This document shows, piece by piece, positions 15,331 through 21,031 of a DNA stretch of 64,000 nt. A program made the translations under genes and the position numbers. This DNA comes from Escherichia phage vB_Eco_OMNI12. Within the stretch, counting starts at the first letter, position 1. Every line of letters begins with the position of its first letter. The stretch lies in the sequence record OL362041.1. The stretch is one strand, 5' to 3'. A model generated the notes under the pieces. It was given only the letters and a program-made list of their open reading frames with translations, did not search any database and was not told the origin of the DNA.

Positions 15331-16295
15331 TGTATTCTTTAGAGGAATTTAATAATCAAGCAATAAACGCAGATTTCCAACGTAATAATATGTTCAGCTG
15401 TGTTTTTGCTACAACTCCATCAACTAAAAGCTCTTCGTTGATAAGTTCAATTAGCAACTTTTCTTATAATAACTTGGGCCTAAATTCAGATTGGTTAGGA
15501 TTAACTCAAGGCGATATTAATCAGGGAATTACTACGCTAATTACAGCTGGCACACAAAAACTGATAAGAAAATCAGGGGTTAGTAAATATCTTATTGGTG
15601 CCATGAGTCAACGTACAGTTCAAAGTTTATTAGGCTCATTTACAGTTGGTACATATTTAATTGACTTCTTTAACATGGCATATAACTCATCTGGATTGAT
15701 GATATACTCTGTAAAAATGCCAGAGAATAGATTATCCTATGAAACTGACTGGAACTATAATTCTCCTAATATTCGTATAACTGGGAGAGAATTAGACCCT
15801 TTGGTTATTTCATTCAGAATGGATTCAGAAGCTTGTAACTATCGTGCAATGCAAGACTGGGTTAACGCTGTTCAAGACCCAGTAACTGGATTGCGTGCTT
15901 TGCCGCAAGATGTCGAGGCTGATATTCAGGTTAATCTTCATTCTCGCAATGGATTACCACATACTGCGGTGATGTTCACTGGATGCATTCCAGTGTCCGT
16001 AAGCGCTCCTGAGTTATCATATGATGGAGATAACCAAATAACTACATTTGATGTTACTTTTGCGTATAGAGTCATGCAGGCTGGAGCAGTTGATAGACAA
16101 GCTGCGCTTGAATGGCTTGAATCTGCTGCTATAAATGGTATTCAAAGCGTTCTCGGAAATAGTGGAGGTGTCACTGGACTATCTAATTCGCTTTCACGAC
16201 TTAGTAGATTAGGGGGAACTGCAGGAAGCATTTCAAATATTAACACTATGACAGGAATTGTCAATTCGCAAAGTAAAATATTAGGAGCAATATAA
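15330..16295 (+). CDS. gp54: Baseplate tail-tube initiator gp54
   Basis: 321 aa. Confidence 0.85.
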   Translation: MYSLEEFNNQAINADFQRNNMFSCVFATTPSTKSSSLISSISNFSYNNLGLNSDWLGLTQGDINQGITTLITAGTQKLIRKSGVSKYLIGAMSQRTVQSLLGSFTVGTYLIDFFNMAYNSSGLMIYSVKMPENRLSYETDWNYNSPNIRITGRELDPLVISFRMDSEACNYRAMQDWVNAVQDPVTGLRALPQDVEADIQVNLHSRNGLPHTAVMFTGCIPVSVSAPELSYDGDNQITTFDVTFAYRVMQAGAVDRQAALEWLESAAINGIQSVLGNSGGVTGLSNSLSRLSRLGGTAGSISNINTMTGIVNSQSKILGAI

Positions 16296-16297
16296 CA

Positions 16298-16328
16298 ATG
16301 GGGACCTTTCGGTCCCCATATTTTTATT
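16298..16328. terminator. Bidirectional terminator between gene 54 and the alt cluster
   Basis: TGGGGACC-TTTC-GGTCCCCA followed by TATTTTTATTT. Confidence 0.65.
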
Positions 16329-16614
16329 TACGGAATGAAATGAAAGCAGCAACTGAAGCAACTAAACTGTCTTCAATATAAACTTCAATTTTTACCGGAG
16401 CTTCTGACTCAAATTTACCTGTTACTACACCCTGAAAAATACTTTCAGTCTGTTCTGGCTTTGAAAAATTTTCAGAAGGAAAAATTCCGAACTTTTTATC
16501 TGTTCCAAAAATTTTGATAAATTCATCGTAAACTGCTTCATTAAAAGCATTATCAGCAGGAATAACGCCTTCAACTACAAGTTCTTGACCTAAAAAGCGC
16601 AAAGAAGATTTCAT
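16324..16614 (-). CDS. Hypothetical protein (alt.-3 position)
   Basis: 96 aa ORF with GAGGAA Shine-Dalgarno, preceded by an early promoter. Confidence 0.6.
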   Translation of the reverse strand: MKSSLRFLGQELVVEGVIPADNAFNEAVYDEFIKIFGTDKKFGIFPSENFSKPEQTESIFQGVVTGKFESEAPVKIEVYIEDSLVASVAAFISFRK

Positions 16615-16645: not shown

Positions 16646-16674
16646 ACTATAACACAACACGAGGGACTTGTAAA
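16646..16674 (-). promoter_or_regulatory. Early promoter (TTTACA-N17-TATAGT)
   Basis: Read on the - strand; a near-identical ~55 bp copy lies at 32568-32622. Confidence 0.6.
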
Positions 16675-18732
16675 CTACATCTTGAACTTTTTAGACATTC
16701 CGTTGATGTTAACCAAAGAAGCTAAGATTTGAGAAACTTCGTTTTCCTCTTCTTTTGATTCTTCTACAAGGAATTGATTAAATCCAGCCATTGGACGAAC
16801 TTCACCAGTTTCCATTAGATGGTCGCCATCATATACTGATTCTTCTAATTGTTCAGAAGGAGGAACGATTGTACCTTCGATTAGATACTTGTTATAAGCA
16901 GTTTCTTTCATAAAGTAAGTACTTACTTTATTAATCTTCAGTAAAATTCCACGTGGTAGAATAACTTCAGCTTCTGACGGAAATCCTGATAAATGACCCG
17001 GAACGATAACTTTGATTCGCTCAGCTCCTTTAATTACCATACCCACGCTAGTTTCAGCATCTTCATTAGCATATGTAGAATGACTACCCATATGCATCAA
17101 ATCTTCTGCATCAACGGAACCTTCTCCTTCACCAGAAAATACTGCGCCGGAATCATCTAGAGCCATATAGTTTTTACCATGCTCACCGAAGATATTTGGT
17201 TTAAGCGATGTGGATACGAAGTTCTTGAAATAGAACATTTTATTTTCAATGTTATGACGCAAAGTTTTAAAGGTAACTTCTTGTCCACGGTAAAGTGTAG
17301 TTCCTGGAGGAAGAACTGAACCTTTAGCGAATGCAGAATCAAGCGTCTCAATATGTTTAATAGCTCGTTCCATATATTCTTCACGGGTAGAATCTGGTTT
17401 ACCCAAAAGGAACGAGTTCATTTCAACATATGAATCTGCACAATAATCTTCAATTACATCAGATTCAGCTTGAGTTAATCCTTTTGGAGTTACTTCAGTG
17501 CTTGCGTATTCATATGCCTGAGCAGCAGATTCATTAATCAATTTATAAATGCCATTCATGACAAATTGAATAATAGCTGTCTTTTCATCTGGCGTAGCTT
17601 TAGAACCTTTAACCAAATCATTGATAATTTTCTTAATAACATCAAAGCTATTAGAAATATTAATATCAGCAAGATCGCTTAAAATTTTATCAGTCTTATA
17701 ATCAAAGAATTCTTTATTCTTTAAATATTCTTGAGAACCTTGATATGTTATATCGCTCTGTAACTTGATAGATGGATCACGTAAACGTGCATGGGCTAAT
17801 GCAATATGATTTCGGAAGCTTTCGAGTTCATAATCACTAGATTTAAAACGAGAAGCGCTTCTCATACCGCCTATAGCTCCTTTGCTGAAGTTTGAACCAA
17901 TTTGAATAACGCCAGAGTTCATTGGTCCTTCTGCTTTATACACCGGAACTTTAGATTCAAACTCTTGATATTTCTTAGCAGCGAAGCTATCACCCTGAAG
18001 TGAAGCATCAACAGTAGAATATTGAGCTTGTGCTGCTAATCGACGACTAATTTTAGTTTTCTGAATAACAGCTTGGTCCGTGCGCTTATCATTTTCTAAA
18101 GCAATAGAAGCAGCAACAGCAACAGCTTTAGGAACAGCATTACCTGTTTTAACATCTACATAAACATCACCAACCTTTGATTCAACTTTTGTGAATAACT
18201 CAGTTGAAATAGGAGGTACACCTGGAATGTCTTCTAAATTGGCATTTTTACGATAAACCATAATATATGCGTACTTTTTATCATAATCCCAGATTTCCTT
18301 TAAAAGAACATATCGACCTGCTCCTTTAGTACGTACTAAACGGTCAGCAATAACTTGCATTTGACGAGCAGCGCCATTTGTTTTACTCTTTAGTACGCGG
18401 AATAAGCATGCATCAATTTTATACTGTTTCATTGTTTGAAGAGCAGTATCAAAAACAGCGTTAATGACGCCAATTGGATTTCCACCCAAGTTTCTAAGTT
18501 TAACCAGTGATAATTTCTCGTTGACACCTATCATTACGATATGCATCATTTTATCGCCTGGCTTAACGTTTTTATTCGTATCACCACCAGAGGTGTATGT
18601 ACAAAATCTAAATCCAGGAAGCACGCTTTCTTCGCCGGCTTGAATAGCAAAAATTTGTGGTATTTTATGCTTAGGATTTAAGTTAACAACCGGCGCCGAA
18701 GCGCCGTCAAATAATTCTGTAATAAGTTCCAT
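16675..18732 (-). CDS. Alt-family ADP-ribosyltransferase, second paralog
   Basis: 685 aa; N-terminus MELITELFD like Alt; C-terminal LYRG...FVSTS...EAEVILP (R-S-ExE ART motifs). Confidence 0.8.
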   Translation of the reverse strand: MELITELFDGASAPVVNLNPKHKIPQIFAIQAGEESVLPGFRFCTYTSGGDTNKNVKPGDKMMHIVMIGVNEKLSLVKLRNLGGNPIGVINAVFDTALQTMKQYKIDACLFRVLKSKTNGAARQMQVIADRLVRTKGAGRYVLLKEIWDYDKKYAYIMVYRKNANLEDIPGVPPISTELFTKVESKVGDVYVDVKTGNAVPKAVAVAASIALENDKRTDQAVIQKTKISRRLAAQAQYSTVDASLQGDSFAAKKYQEFESKVPVYKAEGPMNSGVIQIGSNFSKGAIGGMRSASRFKSSDYELESFRNHIALAHARLRDPSIKLQSDITYQGSQEYLKNKEFFDYKTDKILSDLADINISNSFDVIKKIINDLVKGSKATPDEKTAIIQFVMNGIYKLINESAAQAYEYASTEVTPKGLTQAESDVIEDYCADSYVEMNSFLLGKPDSTREEYMERAIKHIETLDSAFAKGSVLPPGTTLYRGQEVTFKTLRHNIENKMFYFKNFVSTSLKPNIFGEHGKNYMALDDSGAVFSGEGEGSVDAEDLMHMGSHSTYANEDAETSVGMVIKGAERIKVIVPGHLSGFPSEAEVILPRGILLKINKVSTYFMKETAYNKYLIEGTIVPPSEQLEESVYDGDHLMETGEVRPMAGFNQFLVEESKEEENEVSQILASLVNINGMSKKFKM

Positions 18733-18735
18733 GAT

Positions 18736-20793
18736 TTATCCTTGAACGAACTTGTAAGGCATGTTTGCAATATCTATACAAGACGCAATAATTCCAAGAG
18801 ATGATTCTACTTTCTGTTTAACATTTGATGAAACAAATGATGCAAAATCAACTCTGTCTTCTATTTCAATATCACCTGTCATTGTAACTACTTCGCCGGT
18901 TTCCATTAGACGGTCACCGTCATAAATTACCGATTCGGTGAGTTCTTCTGTGGTCATAACTTCAGCTTGAATAAGCTTGTTGTTAGTTTTAACTGTTCCA
19001 TCATTGTAAGATGCATCGGTTATTTTATTAACTTTGACCATTAATCCACGTGGCAAAATGACTTCCATTTCATTTGAAGGTGCTAAACTTCCACCTGGTA
19101 AAACAACATTGACTTTATCAGCCCCAGTAATAACCCATCCAATTCCAACTAAATTATCGCTAGAATTTACTAGTCCTTCATCAGTTTTATCAATAGAAAC
19201 ACTTAAACGCTTTTCGTCTGGTAAAACACCCACAGATGAATCAGTCATCCAGGTACCAAAAATATTTGGATATAATGATGTTGACACAAAATTTCTAAAA
19301 TAAAAAACTCGATTTTTTACCAGTGCTTCATATATTGAAGGTAACATTCGTTGTGAACGATACAAAGTAATACCTTTTGGTAATCGTTCACCATTTTTAA
19401 AGGCAGAATCTAAATTATCAATAGCTTTTTCTATATCAGATGCTGTCAAAATACTTGTACGCTCATCTGGATTATATAATCCCAAAAGAGCGTTATTTAT
19501 GTCTACATATCCTGAACTTACGTATTCACGAATTCCGCGTTTTTGTGCCGGTGTGTATTTAGATGAATCTTTATTTTCGACTATAGGATGTAGTGACCAT
19601 CCAGCGGTAAGAGCATATCCACGCAATTCTCTTCGAATAATCTTTGTTTTTATTGCATTCCAAGAATTTTGTACTAACTCATTCGCAGCATCTTGATTTA
19701 AATGCGAATGCTTGTTAATGTTTCTTTCTAACCAAGCACCTTTATATTTTTCTAAAGTATCATCAACTATAGAAGCAATAGTTTCTAAAGTTTTTATTGA
19801 AGTAATAGATTCTTTTCGTAATCTTTCTAAAGCTTTATTTTTTATTTCTGCATTAACATCAGATTCTTTATCTTCAGGAATTATAGAAGCTTCTCTGAAT
19901 GCCATTCCAGCTGTAACACTACTAAGAGCATTCTCTAATGCAAATCCTGAAGTAGAAATAACAGTTAATTCATTAGCGTCAGAAATTAAAGGAGCGTCAG
20001 CAGGTTTATTTAATTCTGCTGCTGAAGCCTCAAATTTTTGAAACATCGGCGTTTCAAATCTAGAAGATTCCAATGATTGACTTTGCGCAATTGCTCTACG
20101 GGAAATTTTAACTTTAACGATTACAGCTTGGTCAGAACGTTTATCATTTTCTTGTGCAATAGATGCTGCAATTGCCTCATTTTTGGTTACTTGAACTCCG
20201 GTATCTTTATTGATATAAACATCACCGACCTTCGATTCAACTTTAGTAAAGAGCTCGGTACTAATTTCCGGAACTCCTGGAATGTCTTCTAGTGATACAT
20301 TTTTGCGATGTATAAGAATATATGCATACTTTTTATCATAATCCCAGAGTTCCTTAAGAAGGACGTATCTGCCACCTGAACGACTACGGATAAGTCTATC
20401 AGCAATAACTTGAATTTGTCGAGCTTGACCAGCGGTTTTAGACTTAAGAATACGAAGCATACAAGCATCAATTTTATACTGACGCATTGTTTGCATTGCA
20501 ACAGTAAAAACTGAATTGATATAATTAATTGGGCTTGGACCAAGACCTTTTAATTTAGCAATTGAACCTTTAGCAGTTAATGTAAAAGGAACAATATGCA
20601 TCATTTTATCGCCCATCTTTAAATCGCGATTAGTATCACCTCCAGATGTATAGGTACATAAACGAAAACCTGGTTGTTCAATTGCATCATCAACATGAAC
20701 TGAAAAAATTTGTGGTATTTTCTTCTTTGGATTTAAGTTTGTAATCGGAAGAGTAGTATCTTCGTCAAATAATTCTGTAATAAGTTCCATCAT
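18736..20793 (-). CDS. alt: Alt ADP-ribosyltransferase (virion-packaged, modifies host RNA polymerase)
   Basis: 685 aa; LYRS...FVSTS...EMEVILP motifs; position next to gene 30. Confidence 0.85.
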   Translation of the reverse strand: MMELITELFDEDTTLPITNLNPKKKIPQIFSVHVDDAIEQPGFRLCTYTSGGDTNRDLKMGDKMMHIVPFTLTAKGSIAKLKGLGPSPINYINSVFTVAMQTMRQYKIDACMLRILKSKTAGQARQIQVIADRLIRSRSGGRYVLLKELWDYDKKYAYILIHRKNVSLEDIPGVPEISTELFTKVESKVGDVYINKDTGVQVTKNEAIAASIAQENDKRSDQAVIVKVKISRRAIAQSQSLESSRFETPMFQKFEASAAELNKPADAPLISDANELTVISTSGFALENALSSVTAGMAFREASIIPEDKESDVNAEIKNKALERLRKESITSIKTLETIASIVDDTLEKYKGAWLERNINKHSHLNQDAANELVQNSWNAIKTKIIRRELRGYALTAGWSLHPIVENKDSSKYTPAQKRGIREYVSSGYVDINNALLGLYNPDERTSILTASDIEKAIDNLDSAFKNGERLPKGITLYRSQRMLPSIYEALVKNRVFYFRNFVSTSLYPNIFGTWMTDSSVGVLPDEKRLSVSIDKTDEGLVNSSDNLVGIGWVITGADKVNVVLPGGSLAPSNEMEVILPRGLMVKVNKITDASYNDGTVKTNNKLIQAEVMTTEELTESVIYDGDRLMETGEVVTMTGDIEIEDRVDFASFVSSNVKQKVESSLGIIASCIDIANMPYKFVQG

Positions 20794-20813: not shown

Positions 20814-20821
20814 TATTTATA
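20814..20821 (-). promoter_or_regulatory. Late promoter (TATAAATA) upstream of alt
   Basis: TATAAATA on the - strand about 20 nt before the alt start. Confidence 0.5.
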
Positions 20822-20843
20822 AAATTAAAGGCCCGAAGGCCTT
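20822..20843 (-). terminator. Hairpin terminator upstream of alt
   Basis: AAAGGCC-TTCG-GGCCTTT on the - strand followed by a T-rich run. Confidence 0.45.
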
Positions 20844-21031
20844 TAGTAATCTAGTGGTAAGAGAGTACGATATATTTCAAACTTTGGTCCTTTTTCATAG
20901 GCATCAAATGTTTCTGTAAATTTATTATAAGCGTATGCATCTACAAATTCGAGAATGACTTGTGATACAGAAGTAGAAACATCTCCACCTTCTTTTTGAG
21001 CAATGACAATTGTTTCTAAGTAAGCTTTCAT
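20843..21031 (-). CDS. Hypothetical protein (62 aa)
   Basis: ORF between ligase and alt, overlapping the ligase stop. Confidence 0.45.
   Translation of the reverse strand: MKAYLETIVIAQKEGGDVSTSVSQVILEFVDAYAYNKFTETFDAYEKGPKFEIYRTLLPLDY

Follow-up and report, generated by a model that had tools for sequence, protein, structure and literature searches.

Two tandem Alt-family genes at the alt locus

The window, a stretch of 64,000 nucleotides from Escherichia phage vB_Eco_OMNI12 (sequence record OL362041.1), carries on its minus strand two adjacent genes coding for ADP-ribosyltransferases (ARTs) of the Alt family, of which the downstream one, alt.-2, is the subject of this work. Over a 4.8-kb region, the window shares 99.2% identity with Yersinia phage PYps55T and Escherichia phage UPWr_E2; 528 phage records match this region. 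The source phage is T4-like and belongs to the genus Tequatrovirus, and its alt locus is in the common two-gene state, in which a T4-type alt (hereafter copy 1) is followed by an intact altB-type alt.-2 (copy 2). The gene pair is organized as follows:

18736-20790, minus strand (the open reading frame from the first ATG extends to 20793): alt (copy 1), the T4 Alt orthologue; R478, S503-T-S505 and E574-x-E576; gp21 motifs ITE-6 and LTE-619.
16675-18732, minus strand: alt.-2/altB-type gene (copy 2), an intact Alt paralog of 685 residues; R482, S507-T-S509 and E587-x-E589; gp21 motifs ITE-6 and LEE-631.
18733-18745, minus strand: gene junction, with an AAGGA ribosome-binding site within the last codons of alt, the TAA stop, the spacer ATC and the ATG of copy 2.

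The original prediction, made from the letters of the window, had described two tandem minus-strand Alt-family reading frames of 685 residues, 3 bp apart and both starting with MELITELFD. Mechanical calling of open reading frames gives 16675-18732 and 18736-20793, each of 685 residues and separated by 3 nt (18733-18735), yet the upstream frame opens with ATG-ATG (MMELITE...), and the GAGAGG ribosome-binding site located 5 nt before the second ATG is better spaced for that codon. This ATGATG also occurs in T4 alt, where the annotated gene starts at the second ATG, in line with the published ITE-6 numbering. For these reasons, the true upstream product is most likely a protein of 684 residues (18736-20790), which starts with MELITELFD as the downstream product does. 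Copy 2 occupies the genomic position of the Alt family, between DNA ligase/alt.1 and alt.-3/gene 54, and the baseplate genes lie on the other strand.

Copy 1 is 98% identical to T4 Alt (NP_049811) and is its orthologue. Alignment of the two products of the window gave 41% identity (BLASTP, E = 2e-158), with 67.5% over residues 1-238, 18% over residues 239-400 and 39% over the catalytic region (residues 401-625), in agreement with the predicted conservation of the first ~230 residues and strong divergence of the centre and of the surroundings of the catalytic core. Both products match PF03496 (ADPrib_exo_Tox), copy 1 at 5.5e-35 and copy 2 at 5.8e-20 (71.9 bits for a cutoff of 23.4), and both match phrog_802, 'Alt-like RNA polymerase ADP-ribosyltransferase', from end to end (residues 1-685 of copy 2, E = 2e-256; residues 1-683 of copy 1, E = 2.3e-261). 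The precomputed Pfam labels on copy-2 orthologues are PF26846 (Tevenvirinae_ADPRT) and PF03496. LYR, FVSTS and E-x-EVILP, which had been recognized as an R-S-E signature, are present in both copies, and their columns are invariant in a family alignment of 21 sequences. In copy 2, R482, S507-T508-S509 and E587-A-E589, equally invariant in the 21 sequences, follow one another in the order of the R-S-E superfamily, and the catalytic domain is modelled with an ART fold. Sequence searches of solved structures returned none for copy 2 and only a marginal match to CdtA for copy 1, and a search of NCBIfam returned no family match.

An AlphaFold model of copy 2 (mean pLDDT 74) consists of an alpha/beta N-terminal domain (residues ~11-225), an all-helical middle (~245-470), the ART domain (~470-625) and a poorly ordered tail. 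The corresponding segments of the gene are:

18019-18732, minus strand: N-terminal alpha/beta domain of copy 2 (residues 1-238, PF26846), a module shared with Alt and putatively responsible for association with the prohead core.
16840-17500, minus strand: ART catalytic domain of copy 2 (residues ~411-631), in which the acidic PN-loop insert is long (~517-555, low model confidence) and the ARTT turn reads G-F-P-S-E-A-E.
16678-16839, minus strand: predicted C-terminal propeptide of copy 2 (residues 632-685, acidic, isoelectric point 4.6), starting with the conserved SVYDGDHLMETGEV and aligned to the LTE-619 site of T4 Alt.

By all the properties that can be assessed from sequence, copy 2 is thus a member of the Tevenvirinae Alt family and of the R-S-E ART superfamily.

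alt.-2 is intact and under strong purifying selection

The ratio of nonsynonymous to synonymous substitution rates (dN/dS) of copy 2 is 0.035 relative to RB51 alt.-2 (dS 0.196) and 0.128 relative to L003, a metagenomic relative with 74% identity. Alt itself has similar values (0.05-0.07). Constraint is strongest in the N-terminal domain, with dN/dS ranging from 0.008 to 0.033 among orthologues. Such ratios rule out that copy 2 is a decaying pseudogene, and alt.-2 is shown to be intact and under strong purifying selection. The original prediction had taken the intact second ART as evidence for a second target rather than for a decaying duplicate; its second half stands, whereas the argument for a second target is that of the ARTT and PN loop differences presented below.

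Between the two paralogs, dS is saturated along the whole gene (~1.3), including the N-terminus (dS 1.28, dN/dS ~0.22), from which it follows that the duplication is old and that the N-terminal conservation is the result of selection on the protein. Recent gene conversion was considered as a source of the N-terminal conservation and rejected, as dS is saturated there as elsewhere and only the first 28 nt are identical. The two genes are therefore shown to be ancient tandem paralogs with the same predicted architecture, composed of an N-terminal alpha/beta domain, a helical middle, an R-S-E ART domain and an acidic C-terminal tail. The identity of the first 28 nt (20705-20732 and 18705-18732, minus strand) despite synonymous saturation elsewhere may reflect selection on the translation-initiation region or on the propeptide codons, or a very short conversion tract.

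Except for two deletions in T4, the DNA of copy 2 is collinear with the alt.-1/alt.-2/alt.-3 segment of that phage. In the DNA alignment (A1), near-identity extends over columns 1-368 and 2068-2463, with gaps of 1 bp and 1,699 bp in the compared T4 stretch (L002, 5066-5451). T4 lacks one A of a run located at window position ~18573, resulting in a frameshift, and further lacks the following segment:

16695-18393, minus strand: segment of copy 2 deleted in T4 (1,699 bp, codons ~114-679), bounded by the imperfect 9-bp direct repeats CTAAAGAGT (18393-18385) and CTAAAAAGT (16694-16686), between which the deletion took place.

Consequently, T4 alt.-1 and alt.-2 (NP_049810 and NP_049809) match the first ~113 and the last few codons of copy 2 base for base, but as a frameshifted remnant from which 1,699 bp are absent. 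The PHROG families built on T4 alt.-1 and alt.-2 score 138 and 129 bits on copy 2, compared to 78 and 70 bits on copy 1. Together, the collinearity of the DNA and the higher PHROG scores on copy 2 show, at the level of sequence comparison, that T4 alt.-1 and alt.-2 are the deleted remnant of the copy-2 gene. The record of T4 mentions no more than an old partial duplication of alt, involving its first part.

The intact gene already bears several names: it is called alt.-2 in RB51 (ACP31114), altb in JS10 (ACL78419) and 'Alt-like RNA polymerase ADP-ribosyltransferase' in RefSeq. RB51 alt.-2 is 98.4% identical to copy 2 and is the same gene at the same locus. JS10, a phage of another genus (Dhakavirus), carries alta and altb separated by 3 nt; altb is the counterpart of copy 2, in the same slot and with the same 3-nt gap, but its overall identity to copy 2 is only 48%. 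Since the ART core of JS10 altb is closer to copy 2 than to copy 1 (64% versus 39% identity) and the 3-nt gap is the same, the alt/alt.-2 pair is, judging from these comparisons, older than the split between Tequatrovirus and Dhakavirus. Literature searches on alt.-2/altB yielded only general reviews on Alt and a note by Nolan et al. 2006 (PMC1524935), who listed alt paralogs for a number of T4-like phages, the one of 44RR being full-length. The existence of copy 2, its family and its relation to the T4 fragments are thus already known from public annotation and from the 2006 comparative paper. Added here are the exact T4 deletion, the selection estimates, the conserved second gp21 motif, the ARTT/PN loop classes, the cassette polymorphism of slot 1 and the natural hybrids.

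A protein at least 95% identical to intact copy 2 is encoded by ~396 phage records, including T2 and RB6, and the T4-type deletion junction was found in 91 phage records. With alt.-2 intact in about four in five sequenced Tequatroviruses, T2 among them, two full-length genes are the majority state in this genus and T4 is the exception. The two full-length copies that had been singled out in the window are real, but rather than a peculiarity of this DNA they are the usual state of a known alt.-2/altB gene.

Slot 1, which is occupied by alt, is polymorphic (compared segments: window 18736-20076 and RB51 L007 2787-4880). The T4-type centre is present in 174 records, and an RB51-type centre, ~56% identical, in ~317. 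Between RB51 Alt and window Alt, identity reaches 98.7% over the first 238 residues and 94% over the C-terminal tail; the intervening part is only 34-68% identical and has a dS above 1. This looks like the signature of the exchange of centres by recombination between conserved flanks, as read from the alignments.

Natural hybrids of the two genes also exist. Protein clusters P0003-P0006 are exact chimeras in which the N-terminal part is 100% Alt and the remainder 100% copy 2, with crossovers near residues 60, 115, 180 and 230; isolates with hybrids include ECML-134, SCS4 and Yersinia phage PST. In a metagenomic contig (L005, 5001-7055) and in ECML-134 (L006, 1501-3561), the hybrid is the sole Alt-family gene between alt.1 and alt.-3, and in SCS4 and Yersinia phage PST an Alt-family query matches a single place of the genome. 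We considered and rejected the possibility that hybrids are assembly artefacts: a de Bruijn artefact is unlikely because exact words common to the two paralogs do not exceed 28 nt, and hybrids are found in complete isolate genomes with a single gene. By joining the N-terminus of Alt to the body of alt.-2, the natural hybrids show that the N-terminal modules of both proteins are interchangeable. They also show that hybrid phages have lost the catalytic part of Alt itself and rely on the copy-2 type, and that each catalytic type is dispensable singly, for which T4 provides the example in the case of copy 2.

Probable late expression and head processing

Two elements lie upstream of the gene pair:

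20814-20821, minus strand: T4-type late promoter TATAAATA, 24 nt upstream of the start of copy 1; an identical sequence occupies this position in T4.
20826-20845, minus strand: intrinsic-terminator-like hairpin, TAAAGGCC-TTCG-GGCCTTTA followed by a T run, located between alt.1 and the late promoter, which it directly precedes; this element is given as a terminator in the annotation of phage G4498.

Between positions 16200 and 21200, the minus strand contains a single exact copy of TATAAATA (20821-20814), so that only the upstream gene has a late promoter of its own, as had been anticipated. A second exact late promoter, for copy 2, was looked for and not found, the nearest candidate being TATAGATA (18778-18771, minus strand), located 39 nt upstream of the alt.-2 start and inside the end of alt, which differs from the late-promoter consensus by one mismatch. 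This site could act as a weak internal late promoter for alt.-2. Downstream of the late promoter, no terminator-like site was seen between alt and alt.-2, and the coding sequence of copy 2 contains one weak hairpin. The 3-nt gap is kept in RB51, JS10 and L003. Given the single promoter, the terminator-free junction, the AAGGA site in the end of the upstream gene and this conserved gap, co-transcription of alt and alt.-2 from a single late promoter, which had been proposed from the outset, is likely, and translational coupling of copy 2 to alt across the gap is probable.

Mass spectrometry of T4 heads revealed that gp21 cuts Alt after ITE-6 and LTE-619, yielding a mature protein of 68.2 kDa (PMC5694885; reviewed in PMC9026906). 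The Alt protein of the window contains both gp21 motifs, and the mass calculated for its mature form, 68,160 Da, agrees with the published value. Copy 2 has ITE-6 and LEE-631 at positions aligned with the two sites of T4 Alt (LEE-631 versus LTE-619), with the strongly conserved SVYDGDHLMETGEV after LEE-631. Across the 21 sequences, P1 of both sites is always Glu, and P3 is always L, I or M. If it is processed like Alt, mature copy 2 would be a protein of 625 residues and ~69.1 kDa. The six-residue peptide MELITE is known as a cleaved propeptide in Alt, whereas a capsid-targeting role was demonstrated experimentally for IPIII, not for Alt, a distinction missing from the original prediction.

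The N-terminal domain family comprises 69 representatives at 50% identity among 1.84 billion proteins, always in N-terminal position and almost only on the ART proteins of this family. PF03496 is still attached in eight of 10 divergent representatives of the domain. Two distant relatives have no Pfam ART match: P0184 (541 residues) has an unrecognised C-terminal region, and P0183 (485 residues) has a short ART-like region in which LYK replaces LYR. In these two proteins, the delivery domain may bear another or a degenerate effector.

These observations bear on whether the alt.-2 product reaches the virion at all. It might instead act only in the producing cell, late in infection, or be a non-catalytic structural or core component. 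We consider this very improbable, even though the literature searches turned up no proteomic report of its incorporation into virions and its copy number could be too low for notice: conservation is highest in the N-terminal module that the protein shares with packaged Alt, both gp21 motifs stand at aligned positions, the catalytic residues are invariant, and hybrids using the Alt N-terminus are viable.

Predicted function of alt.-2 and relation to known systems

We propose, with a probability of roughly 70%, that alt.-2 codes for a late-expressed, head-packaged and injected arginine mono-ADP-ribosyltransferase, the target set of which would differ from that of Alt. According to this model, which is built on sequence and family comparisons, alt and alt.-2 would be transcribed late from the single TATAAATA promoter and alt.-2 would be translated by coupling across the 3-nt gap. 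Its product would then enter the prohead core via the conserved N-terminal module and be trimmed by gp21 after ITE-6 and LEE-631 into a protein of ~69 kDa. Injected with the DNA, this protein would use NAD+ to mono-ADP-ribosylate arginines of host proteins, as expected for the E-x-E type from motif and family knowledge, and its target set would overlap that of Alt partly or not at all.

In the C3/iota/Vip2 family, the ARTT loop, located just before [E/Q]-x-E, and the PN loop, located after S-T-S, both take part in recognizing the substrate, and members with E-x-E have arginine as acceptor. In our alignment, the copy-2 class (copy 2, its 74% relative, JS10 altb and related clusters) has the ARTT sequence [F/Y]-x-x-E-A-E, in which the fourth residue ahead of the first Glu is aromatic, and a PN loop starting with FGE[H/Y/F]G[K/R]. 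The Alt class (T4-, RB51- and L003-type slot-1 genes) has S-[N/Q]-E-M-E, without the aromatic residue, and a PN loop starting with FG[T/G]W. Both classes are conserved across genera. This difference in the ARTT turn and in the PN loop class supports, by analogy, the view that substrate recognition by copy 2 differs from that of Alt, and is the reason why we predict a distinct target set. The analysis gave no pointer to RNA or DNA substrates for copy 2.

Several observations weigh against this proposal. The PN-loop region, in which copy 2 has a longer acidic insert, was modelled with pLDDT < 50, and the argument drawn from the ARTT loop has its origin in C3 and iota-type toxins rather than in Alt itself. 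The motif [LI]-x-E is short and has seven matches in copy 2, of which the presumed gp21 sites are distinguished only by aligned position and conservation. Full-text literature searches on full-length alt.-2/altB (functional, proteomic and descriptive) found no virion proteomics, activity assay or target list. Finally, alt.-2 is absent from T4-type phages (91 records) and the catalytic part of Alt from ECML-134 and PST, and the natural loss of either gene is also expected if the pair is largely redundant.

This last point leads to an alternative in which alt.-2 is packaged and active, but with host targets that are essentially those of Alt (RNA polymerase alpha and others), and is kept for dosage or insurance. 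Such a redundant backup agrees with the dispensability of each gene in these natural isolates, with the fact that T4 Alt itself is non-essential and with the architecture, E-x-E catalytic motif type and processing motifs common to both copies. We nevertheless regard it as unlikely, for the two genes were already neighbours before Tequatrovirus and Dhakavirus diverged and have been kept so, their dS is saturated, and fully redundant duplicates are not normally held at a dN/dS of ~0.04 for so long. Moreover, their ART cores are only 39% identical and their ARTT and PN loops are class-specific.

Downstream of copy 2, the cluster ends as follows:

16646-16674, minus strand: T4-early-type sigma-70 promoter-like site (TTTACA, 17 nt, TATAGT, extended -10 TG) in the 60-nt gap between copy 2 and alt.-3; its sequence is conserved in T4.
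16324-16614, minus strand: alt.-3 (96 residues, DUF5498), last gene of the cluster, identified by PF17602 (1.4e-64) and by the T4 annotation.
16298-16319, no strand assigned: probable bidirectional terminator hairpin with a 9-bp GC-rich stem and T runs on both strands, between the convergent gene 54 and alt.-3; annotated as a terminator in G4498.

The promoter-like site may allow alt.-3 to be expressed early alone, in addition to late expression via read-through. In the T4 counterpart of the bidirectional hairpin, the stem is present and the loop is TTTC instead of GAAA (minus strand). On the other side of the pair, the product of alt.1 (62 residues, 20843-21031, minus strand) matches Pfam PF24647, 'Phage blade protein' (E = 1.9e-29), and the gene shares 4 nt with the end of the ligase gene.

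Mutants of T4 Alt.-3 with a C-terminal extension escape the CmdTAC defence system by blocking the degradation of CmdA (PMC11618068). In a further alternative, the variable centre of the Alt family could be engaged in an arms race, with alt.-2 mainly inactivating a host toxin or defence protein, in the manner that reviews describe for Alt and MazF, rather than reprogramming transcription. The cassette-like locus, with conserved N- and C-terminal modules around a swapped centre (RB51 Alt versus window Alt), and the escape mutants in neighbouring alt.-3 fit this idea. Unlike a typical arms-race gene, however, alt.-2 is near-invariant (at least 95% identity in ~396 records), the polymorphism affects slot 1 and not slot 2, and no defence phenotype has been reported. 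Although compatible with the injected-transferase proposal, a role mainly in counter-defence appears to us improbable, somewhat more so than redundancy.

More tentatively, and with odds clearly below even, the Alt family could be viewed as a modular head-delivery system composed of a fixed N-terminal core-association domain, a cleavable C-terminal tail and effector centres exchanged by recombination. alt.-2 would then supply a class-B effector that ADP-ribosylates a host target untouched by Alt, such as a defence or translation factor, and T4 would be a natural alt.-2 null that hides this activity. Nearly all knowledge of injected T-even ADP-ribosyltransferases comes from T4, in which the second gene is a remnant with a 1.7-kb deletion. 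If alt.-2 does have targets of its own, the typical T-even takeover of the host includes a step that is invisible in the T4 model. The natural hybrids (ECML-134 and PST) and T4 provide ready-made genetic contrasts.

Among known systems, T4 Alt (gpAlt) is a head-packaged, injected NAD+:arginine mono-ADP-ribosyltransferase. Copy 2 resembles it in its full-length architecture, in its N-terminal domain (67.5% identity), in the R, S-T-S and E-x-E residues and both gp21 motifs, in its probable late transcription unit and in its slot between ligase/alt.1 and alt.-3/gene 54. It departs from T4 Alt in the helical middle (18% identity) and in the ART domain (39%), in the longer acidic PN-loop insert and in the aromatic ARTT turn (GFPSEAE versus APSNEME in Alt). 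The C3-like, Vip2 and iota-type R-S-E ADP-ribosylating toxins (PF03496), such as Vis from Vibrio splendidus, are also among the closest known systems. ModA and ModB of T4 are assigned to the same Alt/VIP2 R-S-E clade in published classifications, but these early proteins of ~200 residues are not packaged and are devoid of the N-terminal and middle domains. ModB also RNAylates, whereas nothing here suggests that copy 2 uses NAD-capped RNA.

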